From contig JAQUSJ010000001.1 of assembly GCA_028715175.1 (NCBI GenBank), positions 546,386-610,385 on the forward strand: 64,000 nt of DNA, in the 5' to 3' direction. Below the pieces are notes generated by a model. It made no database searches. It was not told the DNA's origin and saw only the letters and a list, made by a program, of their open reading frames with translations. Positions 15,262 to 61,874 of the stretch are shown here, one piece after another. Numbering within the stretch: position 1 is the stretch's first letter; the number at the start of each line of letters is the position of its first letter. The position numbers and the translations under genes are program-made. Source of the DNA: Candidatus Daviesbacteria bacterium. GTDB lineage: Bacteria > Patescibacteriota > Microgenomatia > Daviesbacterales > UBA10151.

Positions 15262-15335
15262 GGTCGGGGTGGAGAGAATTGAACTCTCTACATCTGCGTC
15301 CCAAACGCAGCGGTCTACCGATGACCTACACCCCG
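15262..15335 (-). tRNA. tRNA-Pro (anticodon UGG)
   Basis: Reverse complement CGGGGTG TA GGTC ATCGGTA GACC G CTGCG TTTGGGA CGCAG ATGTA GAGAG TTCAATT CTCTC CACCCCG A CC. Confidence 0.8.
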
Positions 15336-15422
15336 TGGTGCCCAGGGAGGGACTCGAACCCTCACGTCCTTGCGGACAACAGCTCTTAAGGCTGCACTGT
15401 CTACCAATTCCAGCACCTGGGC
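15336..15422 (-). tRNA. tRNA-Leu (anticodon UAA), long variable arm
   Basis: Reverse complement GCCCAGG TG CTGGAATTGGTAGACAG ... GCAGC CTTAAGA GCTGT TGTCCGCAAGGACGT GAGGG TTCGAGT CCCTC CCTGGGC A CCA. It abuts tRNA-Pro with 0-nt spacing. Confidence 0.8.
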
Positions 15423-29540: not shown

Positions 29541-29737
29541 CTGCTTTACCCCGATTTGATTATAGTATACCAGAAATTCTAATGTCCAAGTCCCTTATTT
29601 TAGAAAGGATTGTCAGGACAATCTAATCCAGTCTTGCTGCCGGACTAGGAGTCGGACCTAGATAGACACATCCAAAGTGTGTCGTCCTACCATTAGACGA
29701 TCCGGCAATTATTTTTTGGCTGGCATTTTTCTTAATA

Positions 29738-30416: not shown

Positions 30417-30489
30417 GAGCGGGAGACGGGATTCGCACCCGCGACCTCCTACTTGGCAAGCAGGCATTCTGCTACTGAACTACTCCCGC
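30415..30489 (-). tRNA. tRNA-Gly (anticodon GCC)
   Basis: Reverse complement GCGGGAG TA GTTC AGTAGCA GAAT G CCTGC TTGCCAA GTAGG AGGTC GCGGG TGCGAAT CCCGT CTCCCGC T CCA. The D-stem contains a G-T pair. Confidence 0.7.
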
Positions 30490-30760: not shown

Positions 30761-30889
30761 AGAGCAGTTTACACAGAGCGAAGCGAAGTGTGCCTCGACC
30801 CAGAATCGGACTGAGATAATCCGCTCTTCAGGCGGACGCCTTGACCACGTTGGCAATCGAGGCAAACTTAAGAAGATTTTACCACATAA

Positions 30890-32742: not shown

Positions 32743-32819
32743 TGGTGGACAAGACAGGACTCGAACCTGTGACCTCCTCAGTGTAAATGAGGCGCTCTAA
32801 CCAACTGAGCTACTTGTCC
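32743..32819 (-). tRNA. tRNA-Val (anticodon UAC)
   Basis: Reverse complement GGACAAG TAGCTCAGTTGGTTAGAGC GCCTC ATTTACA CTGAGG AGGTC ACAGG TTCGAGT CCTGT CTTGTCC A CCA. Confidence 0.8.
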
Positions 32820-32891
32820 AAATCAGCGCTCTTCCCGGTGTGTCAATCTATCCCACCCCTGGTGTGTGTTAGCTTCACACCGTAGGGTATG

Positions 32892-32974
32892 TGCCGGGAA
32901 GAGGAGTTGAACCTCCACGCCCTTACGGGCACTACCACCTCAAGGTAGCGTGTATACCATTTCACCATCCCGGC
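32892..32974 (-). tRNA. tRNA-Leu (anticodon GAG), long variable arm
   Basis: Reverse complement GCCGGGA ... CTACC TTGAGGT GGTAG T GCCCGTAAGGGCGT GGAGG TTCAACT CCTCT TCCCGGC A. Confidence 0.7.
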
Positions 32975-34305: not shown

Positions 34306-34389
34306 TGCCCCAAGGGAGATTCGAACTCCCACGCCATTTCTGGCACTGACTTCTGAGGCCAGCCTGTCTACCAATTCCAGCATCGGGGC
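34306..34389 (-). tRNA. tRNA-Leu (anticodon CAG), long variable arm
   Basis: Reverse complement GCCCCGA TG CTGGAATTGGTAGACAG GCTGG CCTCAGAA? parsed as stem CTGGC / loop CTCAGAA / GTCAG, variable arm TGCCAGAAATGGCGT, T-arm GGGAG TTCGAAT CTCCC, acceptor TTGGGGC A. Confidence 0.75.
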
Positions 34390-35544: not shown

Positions 35545-36147
35545 ATGGACAATCTCAACCTTAAAACCAATGTGTGGTTTGTTGCTGCCTGGTTTGCAGC
35601 AGCAACTACCGCTTTAATATTTTCACTTACTTTTACCTTGTACCTCTCAAACGCTAAAATAATTAATCCCAATCCGCCGGCTGGCGGACAAAGCTTTAAG
35701 TTATATGCAGCTTTACCTAAGTCTGAAACATTTATTACAGACGAAATAAACTATGCTGACGGCAGGGCAAAAATAATTGAGGATTTTTTGAAAAATTACA
35801 AATCACCCTTATCCGATTATAGCCATATTTTTATCCAGGTTGCCGATAAATACCAGTTAGACTACCGGTTATTGCCTTCAATCGCCATGCAGGAATCAAA
35901 CGGCGGGAAAAAAGTTATTAATCACTCCTATAATCCATTCGGATACGGCATATATGGCAGTATGGTGCTCAAATTTAATTCATGGGAAGAGGCGATTGAA
36001 AGGGTTGGCAAAGCCCTGCGCGAGGACTACTTAAATCAGGGCTTGAAAACACCATACCAGATAATGACCAAATACACACCTCCGTCTCTGCTCGTGGACG
36101 GAAGTTGGGCTAAAGGCGTTTTTACCTTCATGGAAGAACTGCGATAA
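35545..36147 (+). CDS. Membrane-anchored glucosaminidase-domain (GH73/FlgJ-like) protein, paralog 1
   Basis: LLPSIAMQESNGGKK...NPFGYGIYG...YLNQGLKTPYQIMTKYTP. Confidence 0.6.
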   Translation: MDNLNLKTNVWFVAAWFAAATTALIFSLTFTLYLSNAKIINPNPPAGGQSFKLYAALPKSETFITDEINYADGRAKIIEDFLKNYKSPLSDYSHIFIQVADKYQLDYRLLPSIAMQESNGGKKVINHSYNPFGYGIYGSMVLKFNSWEEAIERVGKALREDYLNQGLKTPYQIMTKYTPPSLLVDGSWAKGVFTFMEELR

Positions 36148-36157
36148 TTCTTGCAGT

Positions 36158-36190
36158 CACCTCGAAAGTGAGCTTTGGCTCCTTCGAGGT
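36158..36190. repeat. Family-3 hairpin element (cacctcgaaagtg ... ttcgaggt), intergenic copy
   Basis: 8-bp stem with a 16-nt loop; related to the pheT internal copy. Confidence 0.55.
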
Positions 36191-36196
36191 AATAGT

Positions 36197-36225
36197 TTGA
36201 CTTCTGATCCCCTTTCTGCTATACT
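36197..36225 (+). promoter_or_regulatory. Sigma70-like promoter TTGACT-N17-TATACT
   Basis: -35 at 36197..36202 and -10 at 36220..36225, with exact 17-nt spacing; read directly. Confidence 0.5.
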
Positions 36226-36239
36226 ATCGGTCTTAAAAA

Positions 36240-36265
36240 CCTGTACCCTCTGGTACGGGTTTTTT
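36240..36265 (+). terminator. Terminator-like hairpin (cctgtacc-ctct-ggtacggg) + T6, located between the promoter and the start codon of glucosaminidase paralog 2; possible attenuator
   Basis: 8-bp stem with one G-U pair, 4-nt loop and T-tract at 36260..36265; ATG at 36273. Confidence 0.45.
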
Positions 36266-36272
36266 AAAAGCT

Positions 36273-36869
36273 ATGAAAACAAAAAAATTAAAAATTTTTT
36301 ATTTTTTATTAACTCTTCTATTTCTTTTCCCAAACATGCAAGTTCGGGCGGAAAAAAAGATGGAAATTACTGACCAGGTTATCCAGGTGCAATCCAGAAA
36401 ATTGGATAGCAAAGCAGAAATTTTAGCTGCCTATTTGGAAAAATTCGATTCTCCGCTGCAATATCATGCGCAGGATTTTATTGATGCTGCCAACGAATAT
36501 AATTTAGACTGGAAACTTTTACCCTCAATTGCAGGCGTTGAATCCACTTTCGGAAAAGCTATCCCGGGAGGATTTAATGGATGGGGTTGGGGAGTTTATG
36601 GCACCCAGGCTATTTATTTTAGTTCATGGAAAGAAGCTATTTTTACTGTCGCTAAAGGTTTACGCGAAAATTACTTAAACAAAGGTTTAACAAACCCTTA
36701 TTCCATAAACAGAGTTTATGCTGCTTCCCCTTATTGGGGCGGAAAGGTTTCATATTTCATGAATGATTTAGAAAAGTTCGCAAACGCTTTTGAAGGCGGA
36801 GATATGCAGGCAAATATCGGTTTTGTTCCAAAAATAGCTGCCATCTCGGGCCAATTAGCCTTAAGATAA
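36273..36869 (+). CDS. Secreted glucosaminidase-domain (GH73/FlgJ-like) protein, paralog 2
   Basis: Signal peptide MKTKKLKIFYFLLTLLFLFPNMQVRA; LLPSIAGVESTFGKA...NGWGWGVYG...YLNKGLTNPYSINRVYAASPYWG. Confidence 0.6.
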   Translation: MKTKKLKIFYFLLTLLFLFPNMQVRAEKKMEITDQVIQVQSRKLDSKAEILAAYLEKFDSPLQYHAQDFIDAANEYNLDWKLLPSIAGVESTFGKAIPGGFNGWGWGVYGTQAIYFSSWKEAIFTVAKGLRENYLNKGLTNPYSINRVYAASPYWGGKVSYFMNDLEKFANAFEGGDMQANIGFVPKIAAISGQLALR

Positions 36870-36872
36870 ATA

Positions 36873-36899
36873 ACTAGTGACTAGTGACTGGTGACTAGT
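36873..36899. repeat. Tandem TGACTAG / ACTAGT (SpeI-site) triple repeat: actagtgactagtgactggtgactagt
   Basis: Read directly; intergenic, immediately upstream of murT. Confidence 0.5.
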
Positions 36900-36911
36900 T
36901 ATAATGCCCAT

Positions 36912-38270
36912 ATGAAACTCATTCTAGCTATTCTTCTAGGTAAACTAATCCTTTTTCTCACGCGTAATTTTAAAATCGGAGGAGGCTCAGCTGCTCCGGG
37001 TTTATATGCCCTGTCTATTGAACCGGATCTGGTTGCAAAATTAGCTGCTAAAATCCCCAAAAATGTAGTGATAACCGGAACTAACGGCAAAACTACTACT
37101 GCCAAAATGCTGGCCCATTTTGCGAAAGAAACAGGGCTTAAAGTTATCAGAAACCATACCGGTTCCAATCTTGAACGCGGTATCGCCTCAGCTTTTATTC
37201 AAAACCTCCGTTTACACCCCAAGGGTGTAAAGCTAAACCATGATATTGGCATTTGGGAACTGGATGAAGCAGCTTTTAATGCCGTTGCCCCAAAACTGCA
37301 ACCTGACATTGTTGTATTTTTGAATGTCTTCCGTGATCAACTTGACCGTTATGGTGAAATTGATACTGTAATCAAAAACTGGTACCAGGCGTTAAAAAAA
37401 CTCTCTTCGGAAACTGCGGTTTTAGTTAACGGCGACGATGCCAACATATTAAAACTGGCTGCCTGTTTTAGAGGTAAAGTTCAAACATTCGGGGTTCAAA
37501 ATTGCAAAATCGCGGGGGAGGAAATTGAGCGTCAAAAAGAACAGGAAAACCTTGATTTTGAAGCAAAAAATGTCAAAACAAGCGGATTAACCGGCAGTTT
37601 ATTTCAATTAACTATTAACAATGAACTATTAACTGTTAACCTACCTCTTCCCGGTATCTACCATATCTATGATTTTTTGGCTGCCTTTACTACAGGAACA
37701 ATATTAAATATAGATCCTGATAAAATGGTTTTGTCCTTGAAAACCTATTCACCTGCCTTTGGCAGGGTCGAGAAATTCCATTTAAACCCTACGTTTCATC
37801 GTACTCCTACCTCCGAGGTAGAATACATGGGGTATATTTTCCTGATCAAAAATCCGGCCGGAGCTACCCAGGTCTTTAAAACTATTGCGCCAAATATCAA
37901 ACCCGGGGACAGAATCCTTCTGGCATTAAATGACAACATTGCGGACGGTACAGACGTATCATGGATCTGGGATGCGAATTTCGAATCACTTCGAAATTCG
38001 TCGAATCTTTCTGAACGAGCGCAGTCGAGGGACTATACAATAATTACTTCTGGAATCAGAGCAAATGATCTGGCGCTCCGCTTGAAATATGCCAATTTTA
38101 ATCCTAAAGAAATAGTTGTAGAACCGGACCTGAAACAGGCCCTGAAACAAGCTGGAGTGGGCTTAAAAGGCAAATTGTTCATCCTTCCCACATATACTGC
38201 CATGCTGAAACTGCAATCAATCCTGACTAAAGCCAGCATCAAGAAACATTACTGGGAGGAGGATAATTAG
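36912..38270 (+). CDS. murT: Mur-ligase-family protein, MurT-like (lipid II isoglutaminyl synthase ligase subunit)
   Basis: VVITGTNGKTTTAKML is the Mur ligase P-loop; the C-terminal DUF1727-like region is followed by a GatD-like partner gene. The table ORF uses GTG 36891; ATG 36912 (MKLILAIL) is preferred. It contains a family-1 palindromic insert encoding LRLHPKGVKL. Confidence 0.65.
   Translation: MKLILAILLGKLILFLTRNFKIGGGSAAPGLYALSIEPDLVAKLAAKIPKNVVITGTNGKTTTAKMLAHFAKETGLKVIRNHTGSNLERGIASAFIQNLRLHPKGVKLNHDIGIWELDEAAFNAVAPKLQPDIVVFLNVFRDQLDRYGEIDTVIKNWYQALKKLSSETAVLVNGDDANILKLAACFRGKVQTFGVQNCKIAGEEIERQKEQENLDFEAKNVKTSGLTGSLFQLTINNELLTVNLPLPGIYHIYDFLAAFTTGTILNIDPDKMVLSLKTYSPAFGRVEKFHLNPTFHRTPTSEVEYMGYIFLIKNPAGATQVFKTIAPNIKPGDRILLALNDNIADGTDVSWIWDANFESLRNSSNLSERAQSRDYTIITSGIRANDLALRLKYANFNPKEIVVEPDLKQALKQAGVGLKGKLFILPTYTAMLKLQSILTKASIKKHYWEEDN
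37209..37237. repeat. Family-1 in-frame palindromic element, copy 2, inside murT
   Basis: Identical 29-mer; encodes RLHPKGVKLN. Confidence 0.8.
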
Positions 38271-38350
38271 CTATCAGTCTTCAGCTATCAGATGTTAGAT
38301 GATTTATCTGACGACTGACAGCGAAGCGATACTGAAAGCTGACGACTATT
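38271..38350 (+). repeat. Structured leader repeat, copy X (core AGCTATCAGTCTTCAGCTATCAGAT ... TCTGACGACTGA ... CTGAAAGCTGACGACTATT) directly 5' of gatD ATG
   Basis: Shares a 25-nt core (24/25) and a 19-nt block with the atpE-atpF spacer (61570..61646), in matching orientation relative to the downstream gene. Confidence 0.6.
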
Positions 38351-39073
38351 ATGAAGCTTGTAATCGGTTATCTTTACGGCGACCTAATGAATATCTATGG
38401 AGATACAGGCAATATCATTGCCCTGAAAAAGCGGGCAGAATGGAGAGGGATTAAAGTAATAATCAAAATGTTCACGATCGGAAATGAAATGAAAAAAGGT
38501 ATGGCTGATATTTACTTTTTCGGAGGCGGGCAAGACCAGGCTCAGGAATTAGTAGCAAGGGATTTAGTTGTAAGCGGTAAGGGAAAAGTCATCAAATCAG
38601 AGGTTGAAAGAGGAGTACCACTGCTTTCTGTTTGCGGAGGATATCAGTTACTGGGTGATTATTACAAACCTCACAAAGGTCCTAAACTTCCAGGCGTAGG
38701 ACTATTTCCAGCATATACTGTAGCAAGCCATGACCGGATGATCGGCAATATCATAATCGAATCTATGTTTGGCAAATTAATTGGTTTTGAAAATCATTCC
38801 GGAAAAACTTACCTGAAAAAAGGCGCTTTACCTTTAGGCATGATAGTAAAAGGTTTTGGCAATGGCGGCACTGTCCAGACTGAAGGCTGTATTTATAAAA
38901 ATGCCGTTGGTACTTATATGCATGGCTCGCTTCTGCCTAAAAATCCCAAATTAGCAGACTGGCTGCTGAAAAAAGCTCTGGAAGTAAAATATGGAAAAGA
39001 GTTGGAGCTAAAGCAACTCGATGACACTCTTGAACTCCAAGCCCACTATAAAGCAATCCAAAAATTCGGCTAA
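38351..39073 (+). CDS. gatD: CobB/CobQ-like glutamine amidotransferase, GatD-like (glutaminase partner of MurT)
   Basis: SVCGGYQLLG (catalytic Cys in the CGGYQ context) and ...YMHGSLLPKNPKLAD (His region); 240 aa; immediately downstream of murT. Confidence 0.65.
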   Translation: MKLVIGYLYGDLMNIYGDTGNIIALKKRAEWRGIKVIIKMFTIGNEMKKGMADIYFFGGGQDQAQELVARDLVVSGKGKVIKSEVERGVPLLSVCGGYQLLGDYYKPHKGPKLPGVGLFPAYTVASHDRMIGNIIIESMFGKLIGFENHSGKTYLKKGALPLGMIVKGFGNGGTVQTEGCIYKNAVGTYMHGSLLPKNPKLADWLLKKALEVKYGKELELKQLDDTLELQAHYKAIQKFG

Positions 39074-41199: not shown

Positions 41200-41272
41200 T
41201 GGGCGGTACAGGGATCGAACCTGTGACCTCATTCACGTCAAGAATGCGCTCTACCAGCTGAGCTAACCACCC
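41200..41272 (-). tRNA. tRNA-Val (anticodon GAC)
   Basis: Reverse complement GGGTGGT TA GCTC AGCTGGTA GAGC G CATTC TTGACGT GAATG AGGTC ACAGG TTCGATC CCTGT ACCGCCC A. Confidence 0.75.
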
Positions 41273-49446: not shown

Positions 49447-49529
49447 CCGGAGGTGGCAGAGTGGCCAATTGCAGCTGACTGTAAATCAGCCGGGATTTCC
49501 CTGCGAGGGTTCGAATCCTTCCCTCCGGA
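49447..49529 (+). tRNA. tRNA-Tyr (anticodon GUA), long variable arm
   Basis: CCGGAGG TG GCAGAGTGGCCAATTGC A GCTGA CTGTAAA TCAGC CGGGATTTCCCTGC GAGGG TTCGAAT CCTTC CCTCCGG A. Confidence 0.8.
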
Positions 49530-60693: not shown

Positions 60694-61078
60694 TGATTAC
60701 CTCCTTCACCTGGTTAATTCCCCCTAAAATCGATTCATCCCAAATCTCATCACCTACTTTTAATTTAAATCCGCCCAAGATTTCCGGGTTAATACTCACT
60801 AAAACTTTAGTGATTTCAGCTTTTTTCTCCATCAGCTTTTTTACCTTCTTAATTTGAGCAGGGGAGAGCGGCACCACTGTTTCGATATATAATGTATGTT
60901 CTCTTTCAATTCTTCGTATTCCTTTCAAATATTCCAATAAAGCATGAATCGCTTCATGCCTTGGTAGAAATTTGAGGGCTTTAATTGACCCGGTCACTTG
61001 ATGCTCAAGCATTCTGCCGTCTTTAAAGCTGCCGTTCACCAATTTAGCGACCTTTTTTCGTAACTCTTTTTTTGTCAT
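60686..61078 (-). CDS. atpH: ATP synthase F1 delta (OSCP) subunit, short form
   Basis: Lies between atpF and atpA and overlaps both; 130 aa. Confidence 0.7.
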
Positions 61079-61569
61079 GACAAGTTTTTAACACTCCTTT
61101 CAATTATCTCTCTTTGGTCTTTTTTGTTTAAAATCTTACCTGTTACTTTTTGTAATCCTACTGCCACAATCTCCGCTACCTTATTCATTACTTCCTGCTG
61201 CATTTTTGCAGTTTCAGCGCGAGCAGCTTCTTCGCTCTTTTTAATTAACTCTTCAGCCATTCTGCCGGCCCTTATTTTGGTCTCCTCAAGATACAATACA
61301 CCTTCTTTTTTTGATTCATCAATTATTTTCTGCGCTTCGTTTGCAGCTTTACCGATCATAGCATCTATTTTCTCATTGGTTTCCTGCAATCTTTTCTCAA
61401 TCTCTTCCGCATTTTTTAAACTTTCTGCGATCCTTTTTTTACGCTCCTCTAAAACTTTTAAGATTGGCTTATACATAAACTTCTTCAAGATAAAAAGAAG
61501 TATCGCAAAATTAACTGCCTGCGCGGCTAAAAGTATTGGATTTATCCCAAATTCGTTTAATATTTCCAT
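61075..61569 (-). CDS. atpF: ATP synthase Fo b subunit
   Basis: N-terminal TM INPILLAAQAVNFAILLFILKKFMY plus a long coiled-coil. Confidence 0.8.
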   Translation of the reverse strand: MEILNEFGINPILLAAQAVNFAILLFILKKFMYKPILKVLEERKKRIAESLKNAEEIEKRLQETNEKIDAMIGKAANEAQKIIDESKKEGVLYLEETKIRAGRMAEELIKKSEEAARAETAKMQQEVMNKVAEIVAVGLQKVTGKILNKKDQREIIERSVKNLS

Positions 61570-61646
61570 AAATAGCTATCAGCCATCAGACATCAGTCGT
61601 CAGACAATCACAATAAATCTGATAGCTGAAGACTGAAAGCTGACGA
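61570..61646 (-). repeat. Structured leader repeat, copy Y (atpE-atpF spacer), same family as 38271..38350
   Basis: Minus-strand AATAGTCGTCAGCTTTCAGTCTTCAGCTATCAGAT...TCTGACGACTGA...ATG(atpF); the plus strand shows interleaved inverted repeats tagctatcag/ctgatagct and cagtcgtcag/ctgacgactat. Confidence 0.6.
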
Positions 61647-61874
61647 CTATTTAATAAACGCTATCACCAAAGCATAAATGGCAATAGCTTCTGCAAAGGC
61701 CATGCCTAAAAGCATAACCGGCAAAATTTTAGTCTGTGCGTCTGGATTTCGGCCAATTGCTTCCATTGCTTTCATACCAATAATACCGATGGCTAAAGCC
61801 GGAAACATTGCTCCCAATGCAATAGTGAAACCTGATGCAAAATTTTCTGGCATTTTATCTCCTTTCTCGTCCAA
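61647..61874 (-). CDS. atpE: ATP synthase Fo c subunit
   Basis: GIIGMKAMEAIGRNPDA...LGMAFAEAIAIYALVIAF. Confidence 0.9.
   Translation of the reverse strand: MDEKGDKMPENFASGFTIALGAMFPALAIGIIGMKAMEAIGRNPDAQTKILPVMLLGMAFAEAIAIYALVIAFIK

Follow-up and report, generated by a model that had tools for sequence, protein, structure and literature searches.

Heptamer-repeat hairpins fill the murT-gatD and atpE-atpF spacers of a Candidatus Daviesbacteria genome and resemble a dispersed palindromic repeat

The 64-kb stretch of Candidatus Daviesbacteria DNA analysed here (the window) contains two operon junctions occupied by related repeats. Element A (38268-38350, + strand) fills the spacer between a MurT-like gene, a predicted lipid II isoglutaminyl synthase subunit (36891-38270, + strand; NCBIfam NF045635, E 1e-57, which is below the curated cut-off), and a GatD-like gene (38351-39073, + strand; NF045636, E 3e-62) whose product is 100% identical to an NCBI Candidatus Daviesbacteria MAG protein. 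Element B (61570-61649, - strand) fills the spacer between atpE (F0 subunit c, 68 aa; 61647-61853, - strand) and atpF (F0 subunit b; 61075-61569, - strand). Both begin at the TAG stop codon of the upstream gene and end 5-6 nt short of the next ATG, and there are no further copies within the window.

The two elements are built from tandem 7-nt units, with three units plus two pairs in A (3 + [2+2]) and 4 + 4 in B. The 5′ arm of element A (38268-38291, + strand) consists of the murT TAG stop at the element's end followed by CTATCAG TCTTCAG CTATCAG, and is separated by an AT-rich loop, ATGTTAGATGATTTAT (38292-38307, + strand), from an inner 3′ arm of CTGACGA CTGACAG (38308-38321, + strand). An irregular 10-nt stretch, CGAAGCGATA (38322-38331, + strand), then breaks the 7-nt phase before the outer 3′ arm, CTGAAAG CTGACGA with CTATT (38332-38350, + strand), which abuts the gatD ATG. 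Element B has the canonical form, its sense-strand 5′ arm (61619-61649, - strand) running from the atpE TAG stop through TCGTCAG CTTTCAG TCTTCAG CTATCAG, followed by the loop ATTTATTGTGATTGT (61604-61618, - strand) and a 3′ arm of CTGACGA CTGATGT CTGATGG CTGATAG plus CTATTT (61570-61603, - strand), abutting the atpF ATG. Set against the orthologous copy in the relative L252 and other Daviesbacteria copies, element A is partly degenerate relative to the canonical 4+4 form, as judged from its sequence. A Logan contig breaks off exactly at element B.

The initial annotation had proposed that the two spacers share a repeat, and as a whole this observation holds. The 25-nt core AGCTWTCAGTCTTCAGCTATCAGAT occurs exactly twice, at 38269-38293 (+ strand) and 61617-61641 (- strand), in each case oriented with its downstream gene, and 0.00 matches are expected in shuffled sequence even with 3 mismatches allowed. 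The 12-nt box TCTGACGACTGA lies at 38307, with its reverse complement in the atp spacer, and neither the core nor the box is expected by chance to be common to both elements; in the comparison of paralogues, A and B share 20 + 12 nt. A third shared block, CTGAAAGCTGACGACTATT, had also been placed in matching orientation, but it lies on the + strand at both loci (38332-38350 and 61633-61651), such that its atp copy is in inverted orientation with respect to the ATG and lies at the end nearest the stop codon: the outer 3′ arm of element A matches the 5′ end of element B exactly once the latter is reverse-complemented. The repeated modules that had been described are present, but as strict heptamers arranged as (NNNTCAG)n, loop, (CTGANNN)n, and element A begins at the TAG stop codon, three bases upstream of its annotated start, with the atp copy extending over 61570-61649. 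Both copies are predicted to fold as a single long interrupted hairpin (A, -31.7 kcal/mol, z -4.0; B, -35.5 kcal/mol, z -4.5), with no need to invoke a pseudoknot.

To place the elements in context, we compared the junctions with those of relatives. Among 74 metagenomic and 9 assembly-derived relatives, murT and gatD mostly have an ATGA overlap or a spacer of a few nucleotides, and an orthologous element is present only in L252, with a possible remnant in L270; the closest relatives (83-84% GatD identity) lack it. For atpE and atpF, a TAATG overlap, corresponding to an empty site, is found in the Daviesbacteria MAG L315. Because murT and gatD overlap in most relatives, and atpE and atpF in one, elements A and B are insertions; at both loci insertion occurred at or within the stop codon of a normally overlapping gene pair. 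The murT/gatD site is thus polymorphic, with about 80 empty relatives versus the filled sites of the window and L252. The only sequence readable as a target-site duplication is the TA common to TAG and CTA, although this would leave the ancestral sequences without a stop codon; insertion in or after the stop codon without duplication is compatible with both loci.

The window and L252 copies are alike at their ends. In the 5′ arm of element A, 24 of 25 nt are identical to the L252 copy, and over the outer arms 51 of 55 nt are identical, versus 68-72% in the flanking coding DNA and 36-49% at four-fold sites; a second orthologous pair (L134 and L229) has 33 of 34 outer-arm nucleotides identical versus 35.5% at four-fold sites. 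Between such orthologues it is the inner units and the loop that change, whereas the ends persist. Recent recombination was considered for the likeness of the window and L252 copies and rejected, as the coding sequence bordering the junction shows no higher similarity than the remainder of the genes. Phylogenies of GatD and MurT fit one old insertion and two insertions alike.

Other heptamer repeats are found at these two junctions in relatives, including plain duplications of the gatD start region (AAAATTG x5 in L262, AAATTGG in L264, AACTATT in L253, and AAATTTA in L244), and hairpins with different heptamer cores at these same junctions (CAGG/CCTG in L317 and CTAAT/ATTAG in L266). These would be expected if elements A and B were simple-sequence repeats that had arisen where they stand, by 7-nt replication slippage and strand switching at AT-rich gene junctions and not by movement from other loci; the turnover of inner units and loop between persisting ends also fits, and heptanucleotide repeats are described as the commonest long class of simple-sequence repeat in prokaryotes (Mrazek et al. 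2007, as cited in PMC4679880). Slippage, however, predicts homogeneous units and broad lengths rather than a mode of four mixed units per arm, leaves the fixed polarity of the arms unexplained, and does not account for unrelated junctions of one genome having the same word set, TAG...CTA ends, and 4+4 form, sometimes with near-identical loops. We consider purely local growth very unlikely.

The initial annotation had allowed that the similarity might be confined to these two loci, but many additional copies were found. Daviesbacteria elements are present in at least 19 8-kb blocks from at least 9 other MAGs, several with multiple copies, and one MAG (JACPDA01) has at least 9 elements in at least 7 blocks. 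Near-identical paralogues include L173 and L221 (loops included), both L179 copies, and the window pair. Almost all of these copies occupy their intercistronic spacer exactly. In its canonical Daviesbacteria form the element reads TAG-(YYNTCAG)4, then an AT-rich loop of 8-18 nt, then (CTGANRR)4-CTA, in which the TAG is the upstream stop and CTAT(N0-6)ATG provides the next start, in either orientation of the element. The ends are (A)ATAG or TTAG...CTAT, with GTAG in only a few of the Daviesbacteria copies, so that the conserved GTAG-like 5′ tetranucleotide of REP/REPIN sequences is missing.

Contrary to the initial suggestion, the repeat is not specific to this lineage: the same architecture and the same unit words are present in at least 15 phylum-level groups and in phages, including a tailed phage with ~24 copies between genes in 34 kb. 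Among the matches listed, hairpin-type TCAG/CTGA arrays occur in two cyanobacterial genomes, Anabaena CCY 9613 and Stenomitos. Throughout, the element consists of tandem 7-nt units with an invariant CTGA, in opposite-strand arrays that face each other with the TCAG arm first. Across 51 aligned elements the core never varies, the commonest size is 4+4 units, and the swapped order (CTGA..TCAG) was seen 0 times versus 177 forward in the retrieved loci, and in 37 stretches versus more than 120 forward in the whole viral collection.

Of the 177 elements listed, none lies inside an ORF, 73-84% are between co-directional ORFs, and 6-11 are between divergent genes; in the genome set, the upstream stop is 0-10 nt from the first unit in 64% of the matches listed. 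In GC-richer genomes and phages the element hugs the upstream stop and usually ends 11-30 nt before the start codon.

The start-proximal position raises the prospect that the CTGA heptamer array is a translation-initiation element, an mRNA platform for Shine-Dalgarno (SD)-independent initiation bound by the ribosome, S1, a cold-shock-type protein (with a roughly 7-nt footprint), or another RNA-binding protein. The CTGA-phase arm faces the downstream start in both element orientations, the 7-nt period and invariant core suggest recognition of a repeated unit, and the TAACTGA repeats of Beggiatoaceae likewise face start codons, ending about 1 nt upstream (PMC4679880). By analogy with the proposal made for those repeats, CTGA heptamers beside start codons may have a translation-related role (PMC4679880). 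The downstream genes also lack an adjacent SD, as the initial annotation had observed, but this is not special to gatD and atpF because SD use is low throughout the window, with a 4-mer SD core upstream of only 7 of 50 long ORFs. Moreover, the 11-30 nt left in GC-richer genomes and phages is room for a normal ribosome binding site, most orthologous gatD and atpF genes have no element, and there is no sense-strand bias, and we regard a dedicated initiation element as unlikely.

An absence of strand asymmetry is instead what a DNA-level protein-binding array predicts, in which the arms are four heptad sites each, arranged head to head and bound cooperatively by a nucleoid-associated protein or global regulator. 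There is a precedent in the omega repressor of pSM19035, which binds 7-bp heptads in direct or converging orientation, and poorly when they diverge. The invariant core with free spacer positions, strict 7-bp phase, converging polarity, preferred 4+4 form, and conserved outer arms of orthologous copies are all consistent with such an array, and the 'class 3' sites of Geobacter metallireducens were guessed to be of IHF/HU type (PMC2700814). However, the sites are operon-internal and directly follow stop codons rather than lying in promoter regions, with only the 6-11 mentioned above between divergent genes; hairpins with different cores occupy the same junctions (L317 and L266); and occurrence in very different phyla and in a phage would require the binding protein to be shared or to have converged, with no candidate known. 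We therefore think it improbable that DNA binding explains the repeat.

At the RNA level, the elements are predicted to form a stem of ~30 bp interrupted every 5 bp, with a mean folding energy across elements of about -32 kcal/mol, and the arms are complementary only through the 5-nt core. One variable unit position covaries between families (C-G, U-A, G-C, and A-U) but is constant within an element; the other two are paired in 33-50% of cases, no better than with shuffled partners, and in-register pairing of the variable triplets gives no gain over shuffled partners either. If the hairpin were the target of selection the variable positions should tend to pair, and the observed pairing does not show this. 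Neither the folding energies of sense and antisense strands nor the G.U-compatible core variants show an asymmetry toward the sense strand, so an RNA-strand signature is unsupported. The covariation analysis proposed in the initial annotation thus gave no signal specific to RNA.

A dedicated structured RNA finds no support. Rfam searches (at gathering thresholds for the window and 7 loci, and at E<=1 for the spacer) returned only tRNAs and a chance snoRNA match. A riboswitch-like leader was rejected, as the element is not kept upstream of the same gene (2 of ~80 murT/gatD junctions), the arms are no more complementary than inverted repeats would make them, no strand is preferred, and there is no matching Rfam family; the element does not serve gatD as a dedicated leader responding to a specific ligand or factor. 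Intrinsic termination was rejected too: promoter and terminator scans found nothing at either element, and the hairpins run into CTATT(T)ATG.

Another RNA function would be a selected intercistronic processing or stability signal, for example an RNase III site or a hairpin protecting 3′ ends, as in phage T7 early mRNA and Escherichia coli REP; such a signal would set the ratio of upstream to downstream protein, and in the atp operon many c subunits are needed per b subunit. The stable interrupted stem, its position right after stop codons within operons and after atpE (which codes for the most abundant F0 subunit), the ~24 intergenic phage copies, and the conserved stem bases of orthologous copies all speak for this. 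Yet MurT and GatD make up an enzyme of 1:1 stoichiometry, their genes still overlap in most relatives, neither stability nor G.U-compatible variants favor the sense strand, and the swapped arm order, which would fold equally well, is avoided. We doubt that processing or stability is what the element was selected for.

We prefer the reading, with about even confidence, that element A and its paralogue B belong to a dispersed, REP/MITE-like set of imperfect palindromes with tandem-heptamer arms. The initial annotation was thus partly right: the translation or processing element it proposed is not lineage-specific and is unsupported as a dedicated structured RNA, but its alternative of a small selfish repeat aimed at junctions within operons agrees with most of the findings, including presence/absence polymorphism at orthologous junctions, the many copies in related Daviesbacteria genomes that exactly fill stop-to-start spacers, and the mosaic nature of copies at the level of 7-nt units. 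The case for mobility comes from distribution, because no transposase, target-site duplication, or autonomous parent element was found at the loci examined. A search for a parent, in the form of arrays 200-4000 nt apart enclosing an ORF, gave nothing in the Patescibacteria loci, whose arrays nearly all belong to short 4+4 hairpins; distant array pairs were found only in array-dense contigs, where pairing says little. The one Y1_Tnp (RAYT) gene seen is in the Daviesbacteria MAG L315, and is flanked by an unrelated hairpin, CGTTCCCACTTGACGAGTGGGAACG.

A dispersed palindrome of this kind would spread or be renewed at the DNA level, through a transposition-like process or one of recombination or slippage acting on 7-nt units, and we predict that it is tolerated as an insertion and possibly useful, because the hairpin holds stop and start codons together. 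Co-transcribed with its operon, the element would form a ~30-bp interrupted RNA hairpin whose 5′ foot contains the upstream stop codon and whose 3′ foot lies no more than 8 nt from the downstream AUG. Ribosomes finishing translation at the stop would open the lowest part of the stem, leaving the start region beside the stop codon and unmasked, so that translational coupling could survive the insertion.

For gatD, the hairpin may also restore an SD. The last murT codons include GGAGGAGG (38255-38262, + strand), the putative ancestral gatD SD, for which relatives have TGGGAGGAAnnATGA. It is now ~88 nt upstream of the gatD ATG, adjoining the 5′ foot of the hairpin, which would bring it back close to the AUG, where it may still serve as the gatD SD. 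As a general idea, a split SD returned by the hairpin was rejected, as it applies to gatD only; an SD before the stop is absent from most of the other Daviesbacteria copies. By analogy with REPs, the element might additionally protect the 3′ end of the upstream cistron or damp expression of the upstream gene. The strong conservation of outer arms in orthologues and the ~24 copies carried by a single streamlined phage genome are easier to reconcile with a selected function than with pure selfishness.

More broadly, and tentatively, the (NNNTCAG)4-loop-(CTGANNN)4 hairpin could be a class of operon 'punctuation' common to bacteria and phages, with fixed polarity, a 4+4 form, and a core constant over saturating divergence; it would be either selected through a conserved reader (coupled termination-reinitiation, processing, or a heptad-binding protein) or a new foldback-type mobile element that has heptamer arrays as its ends and targets stop/start junctions. 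This seems to us possible rather than probable, but either way it would be the REP-equivalent of the CPR, Omnitrophota, Planctomycetota, Acidobacteriota, and their phages. In model bacteria, REPs and other small palindromic repeats influence both the expression of operons and the plasticity of genomes, and almost nothing comparable has been described for the uncultivated majority. Here an unusually simple design (7-nt units with a TCAG/CTGA core, arms that converge, a 4+4 size, and precise stop-to-start placement) is carried by genomes ranging from those of ultra-small CPR bacteria to soil phyla and tailed phages. If a conserved factor reads the element, or if coupling survives its insertion, it offers a tractable system for how compact genomes tolerate or use repeats, and culturable carriers exist in G. 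metallireducens and Anabaena. There are practical consequences as well: such repeats fragment short-read assemblies, as at the Logan contig end, and may mislead the calling of gene starts or pass for lineage-specific regulatory RNAs.

Several known repeats resemble the elements in part. Bacterial MITEs, such as the Correia elements of Neisseria, and eukaryotic foldback elements with inverted ends made of short tandem repeats are small and non-coding, with little beyond two inverted ends, and share with the elements described here insertion polymorphism, hairpin folding, and the co-transcription with neighbouring genes that we predict for ours. Unlike copies of typical MITEs, however, those described here vary far more, at the variable unit positions, while the core is invariant. 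The REP/BIME (REPIN) sequences of Enterobacteria and Pseudomonas are similarly dispersed extragenic imperfect palindromes, often within operons near stop codons and transcribed as hairpins, with reported roles that include protecting upstream mRNA and stalling terminating ribosomes; in contrast to our elements, they have no 7-nt internal period, possess a GTAG-type tetranucleotide on the 5′ side, and are linked to RAYT transposases.

Among tandem repeats, the cyanobacterial STRR units CCCCAGT, TTGGTCA, and CAACAGT have no TCAG core and form direct arrays, and the inverted 4+4 form is not known to be part of the STRR description. In having tandem 7-nt intergenic units, STRRs and the long prokaryotic heptanucleotide repeats (Mrazek et al. 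2007, as cited in PMC4679880) are nonetheless similar to ours. The TAACTGA direct heptamer repeats of marine Beggiatoaceae, Cyanobacteria, and Bacteroidetes (MacGregor 2015, PMC4679880) are closer, with a 7-nt unit and CTGA core, an almost always intergenic location, a patchy phyletic spread, and a CTGA orientation that faces the start codon and ends a few nucleotides before it. They contain stops in all frames in the CTGA orientation, whereas the reverse is translatable and occasionally found in ORFs (PMC4679880). Solo arms in L158 and L137 behave like these repeats. The TAACTGA repeats differ from our elements in using a single unit, in direct arrays of 2-6 copies with one inverted example only, with no predicted hairpin and no filling of formerly overlapping stop-to-start spacers; our unit words are mixed (CTA, CTT, TCT, or TCG before TCAG) and the arrays inverted rather than direct repeats of TAACTGA.

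The closest match is the 'class 3' of G. metallireducens, eight pairs of 5x MTYCTGA on opposite strands between co-directional genes (Aklujkar et al. 2009, PMC2700814, Additional file 9), annotated as putative IHF/HU-type sites with function not known. This is a supplementary listing in which the sites are not described as hairpins, as insertions, or outside that genome (PMC2700814). Unlike our elements, class 3 sites have five units per arm and a longer, variable inter-arm distance (~45-100 nt in the example), with MTY rather than HRR/YYD at the variable positions. The likeness is otherwise extensive: both have paired arrays of at least three CTGA-core heptamers that face each other on opposite strands, reading (NNNTCAG)n ... 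(CTGANNN)n on one strand; both are intergenic between co-directional operon genes (proB-proA and moaA-mosC in Geobacter) and multi-copy, with two copies in the 64-kb window here and several in related MAGs; and the arm order in Gmet_I301A(-)/B(+) is the same as in the elements described here.

Read from the murT stop codon to the gatD start codon (38268-38353, + strand), the repeat of the murT-gatD spacer (element A, 38268-38350) consists of TAG, CTATCAG TCTTCAG CTATCAG, ATGTTAGATGATTTAT, CTGACGA CTGACAG, CGAAGCGATA, CTGAAAG CTGACGA, CTATT, and ATG; that of the atpE-atpF spacer (element B, 61570-61649) reads, in the atp sense (61649-61567, - strand), TAG, TCGTCAG CTTTCAG TCTTCAG CTATCAG, ATTTATTGTGATTGT, CTGACGA CTGATGT CTGATGG CTGATAG, CTATTT, and ATG. 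Each thus consists of tandem (NNNTCAG)n heptamers followed by a loop and an inverted (CTGANNN)n array, and the 64-kb window contains no other heptamer runs of this type. The initial annotation had described two related repeat copies sharing a 25-nt core, and these are confirmed, with two matches to the core in the window and zero expected; a third block, said to lie in matching orientation at both loci, is on the + strand in both, and is thus inverted in the atp copy, at the stop-codon end. Comparing A with B, the outer arms are swapped and inverted, and the central part has the same orientation. Each is predicted to fold as a single long interrupted hairpin (A, -31.7 kcal/mol, z -4.0; B, -35.5 kcal/mol, z -4.5), with the stop codon in the 5′ foot and the AUG 0-8 nt past the 3′ foot. 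The gene identities first assigned agree with NCBIfam profile matches, although every score is below the NCBIfam cut-off; atpE is called at 61647-61853. An NCBI Candidatus Daviesbacteria MAG (Microgenomates, CPR) encodes proteins matching the window's GatD and AtpF at 100% identity.

Isolated CTGA-phase heptamer pairs at 36198-36211 (TGACTTCTGATCCC, in the 36147-36273 spacer) and 34346-34359 (CTGACTTCTGAGGC, within a tRNA gene) are probably chance occurrences. Eleven tRNA genes, single or paired, are dispersed over 10729-49529 (examples are at 15264-15422, 29637-29707, 30418-30489, 30791-30863, 32746-32974, 34306-34389, 41200-41272, and 49447-49529), and rRNA is absent. A 1618-bp Logan contig (L121, SRR22315506), whose AtpF has 100% identity to that of the window, starts exactly where element B ends, 2 nt ahead of the atpF ATG, which probably reflects an assembly break at the repeat.

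In relatives whose GatD is 63-84% identical, murT and gatD mostly overlap at ATGA, preceded by TGGGAGGAA, which codes for the MurT C-terminus and acts as the gatD Shine-Dalgarno; the remaining junctions have few-nt spacers. The sites are empty in the nearest relatives by GatD (83-84%), and only one comparison locus, L252, has an element, with ends near-identical to the window's (GGAGGAGGAAAATTAG CTATCAG TCTTCAG CTTTCAG ... CTGATGA CTATTATG) and a different loop and inner units; GGAGGATAATTAGCTTTCTGTG at this junction in L270 may be an element remnant. At atpE-atpF, a Daviesbacteria MAG (L315) has a TAATG overlap, and the closest AtpF relative (L313, 1739-1897, and L314, 1658-1816; 80% identity) has an unrelated 157-nt spacer without heptamer periodicity. 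These overlapped or empty sites indicate that A and B are insertions at normally tightly coupled junctions. A further Daviesbacteria genome (JGI Ga0209516_1000001), empty at murT-gatD, carries at atpE-atpF (L317, 2899-3001) another heptamer hairpin with core CAGG/CCTG, (GGTAACA GGCATCA GGCCACA GGTTGCA)...(GCCTATT GCCTGTA GCCTATT), and the atpE-atpF junction has been remodelled independently several times. In L315, a RAYT-like Y1 transposase gene (PF01797; 1290-1937) lies just upstream of atpB, with the hairpin CGTTCCCACTTGACGAGTGGGAACG on both flanks (~1240-1280 and ~1940-1975); this is a REP/RAYT unit of the classical kind, with no relation to the heptamer elements.

Other 7-nt repeats are found at murT-gatD: tandem duplications of the gatD start region in L262 (AAAATTG x5, including a TTG start), L264 (AAATTGG), L253 (AACTATT/AACTATG), and L244 (AAATTTA, within an N-terminal extension); CAATTTA in L309; L301 likewise grouped here; and (ATTTCTA)4 with an inverted ATTAGNN array in L266. 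Both junctions are hot spots for several kinds of heptamer repeat, and the duplications at gatD starts suggest that these genomes are generally prone to 7-nt slippage where genes begin. That the arrays of A and B themselves arose by slippage in place, a reading to be set beside both these duplications and the dispersed copies described below, we consider very unlikely.

The element ends are well conserved at diverged loci. Over the outer arms and immediate flanks, A and L252 are identical at 51 of 55 nt; the neighboring coding DNA is 68-72% identical (36-49% at four-fold sites), with no increase toward the junction. Likewise, at the orthologous loci L134 and L229 of two species-level MAGs, 33 of 34 outer-arm nt are alike vs 35.5% at four-fold sites, and loops and inner units differ. 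Either the stem base is strongly constrained, or two insertions placed near-identical elements at precisely one site. Both readings are compatible with the star-like pattern of the GatD tree and of the MurT identities.

A genome scan with CAGCTATCAG-N7-25-CTGACGACTG yielded at least 111 stretches, with ~21 chance matches estimated from the collection size. Among the matches listed, copies are carried by at least nine other Daviesbacteria MAGs (nineteen 8-kb blocks) and many other phyla, with at least nine elements in seven blocks of JACPDA01 alone. The canonical Daviesbacteria form there is TAG, 4 x (YYNTCAG), A, an 8-18-nt AT-rich loop, T, 4 x (CTGANRR), and CTA(T/C), and almost every Patescibacteria array belongs to such a 4+4 hairpin (four units per arm). 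Daviesbacteria copies draw in varying order on a small word set (CTA, CTT, CTG, TCT, TCG, TCA, CCA, CCT, and ACT, plus TCAG), with evident paralogues in L173/L221 and the two L179 copies. Nearly all fill a co-directional ORF gap exactly, the TAG end providing the upstream stop and the far end being CTAT(N0-6)ATG, whichever way the element is oriented. The element is thus a dispersed insertion of defined architecture at stop/start junctions, and the suggestion of a small repeat at operon-internal junctions is supported by insertions into coupled junctions and by dispersed copies filling stop-to-start gaps.

Full hairpins (at least 3+3 units) make up 69 of the 111 listed genome matches, in Omnitrophota, Daviesbacteria, Gottesmanbacteria, other Patescibacteria, Gammaproteobacteria, Alphaproteobacteria, Acidobacteriota, Chloroflexota, Planctomycetota, Verrucomicrobiota, Elusimicrobiota, Poribacteria, Deinococcota, Gemmatimonadota, Bacillota, and Cyanobacteria (Anabaena). 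An IMG/VR scan for architecture only (TCAGNNNTCAGNNNTCAG-N6-30-CTGANNNCTGA) gave >120 stretches, those listed ranging from 38 to 72% GC, frequently several on one contig. The tailed-phage contig IMGVR_UViG_3300045936_000120 (34,160 bp; L062, L030, and L064), with terminase, portal, major head, and tape-measure proteins, has ~24 TCAG/CTGA hairpins over 34 kb, and almost all of them occupy short co-directional spacers; some parts have nearly one per short intercistronic spacer. Among the 177 viral and genome elements listed, none is within an ORF, 4+4 is the commonest size, and 73% (viral) and 84% (genome) lie between co-directional ORFs; in the genome set, 64% begin 0-10 nt after the upstream stop, and 4-30 nt typically separate the last unit from the next possible start. 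With the arms exchanged, (CTGANNN)n...(NNNTCAG)n, no case occurs in the viral and genome loci (1.84 Mb) recovered by DNA-pattern scans, and the entire viral collection has only 37 stretches, mostly of a separate CTGAG/CTCAG family; the polarity of the arms is fixed. That mirror-image family, (CTGAGNN)n-loop-(NNCTCAG)n with a 5-nt core, occurs on viral contigs (L319-L355) in several copies each, e.g., IMGVR_UViG_3300005578_000008.

We aligned 51 viral elements, using four inner units per arm with loops replaced by GAAA. Pairing occurs in 82% of cells, and the four core positions do not vary, a constancy that would suit a heptad-binding DNA protein, although we regard such a protein as improbable. 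Between families, covariation is seen at the first variable position (C-G 26, U-A 12, G-C 6, A-U 2), and the other two are paired in just 33-50% of cases. Opposing triplets within one element pair no more than shuffled partner units, so the complementarity is what any inverted repeat with a 5-nt core yields. Between co-directional genes, stability has no sense-strand bias (sense more stable in 61, antisense in 55), differences >8 kcal/mol go both ways (10 vs 19), and G.U-compatible core variants are not in excess (34 pairing on the sense strand vs 32 on the antisense only). The elements match no Rfam family, and no terminators or promoters were predicted at them. These results give no specific sign that structure is selected on the mRNA strand, and they remain compatible with a hairpin that just happens to be there. 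A selected processing site, for which the predicted hairpins would be suited, is doubtful beside these strand counts, and the proposed lineage-specific leader is not supported, given the same architecture in many phyla and phages, the lack of an Rfam match, and the absence of strand bias.

We propose a DNA-level process, working unit by unit, by which the element spreads or is renewed; the element would be tolerated at stop/start junctions, perhaps only there in a compact genome. According to the predicted folds it can form a hairpin with stop and start codons at its feet; on the mRNA it would fold away, leaving these juxtaposed, and a terminating ribosome may melt the stem base and free the start region. 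Like REPs, it may also influence mRNA stability or how the upstream gene terminates. A role as a translation platform, to which this geometry would lend itself and for which the sense strand has no stability advantage, seems unlikely. For gatD, a displaced GGAGGAGG (38255-38262) would come to adjoin the helix foot, resembling the split ribosome-binding sites of phage T4 genes 25 and 38.

At L158 (1805-1832, + strand; ...QKSVVSYQSSDE...) and L137 (7460-7487, read on the - strand; MNAKQLRSSQLSDVSHQTRKK...), apparent coding regions contain solo four-unit arms in the translatable TCAG orientation, resembling reverse-oriented TAACTGA repeats in Beggiatoaceae ORFs. In the literature searched, with incomplete coverage, neither the compact hairpin nor its insertion between overlapping genes is described, and no spread in CPR, Omnitrophota, soil phyla, or phages is reported. 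This kind of repeat is sparsely documented, here with a changed form in a new lineage, and the class as a whole appears under-described and merits dedicated study. MacGregor (2015; PMC4679880) described TAACTGA direct repeats aimed at start codons in Beggiatoaceae, Cyanobacteria, and Bacteroidetes, considered S1, Csp, or CsrA binding, and remarked on stops in all frames. Aklujkar et al. (2009; PMC2700814) listed eight opposite-strand pairs of 5x MTYCTGA in G. metallireducens, e.g., in the proB/proA gap, as putative global regulator sites; their arm order is the same as in the heptamer hairpins here.
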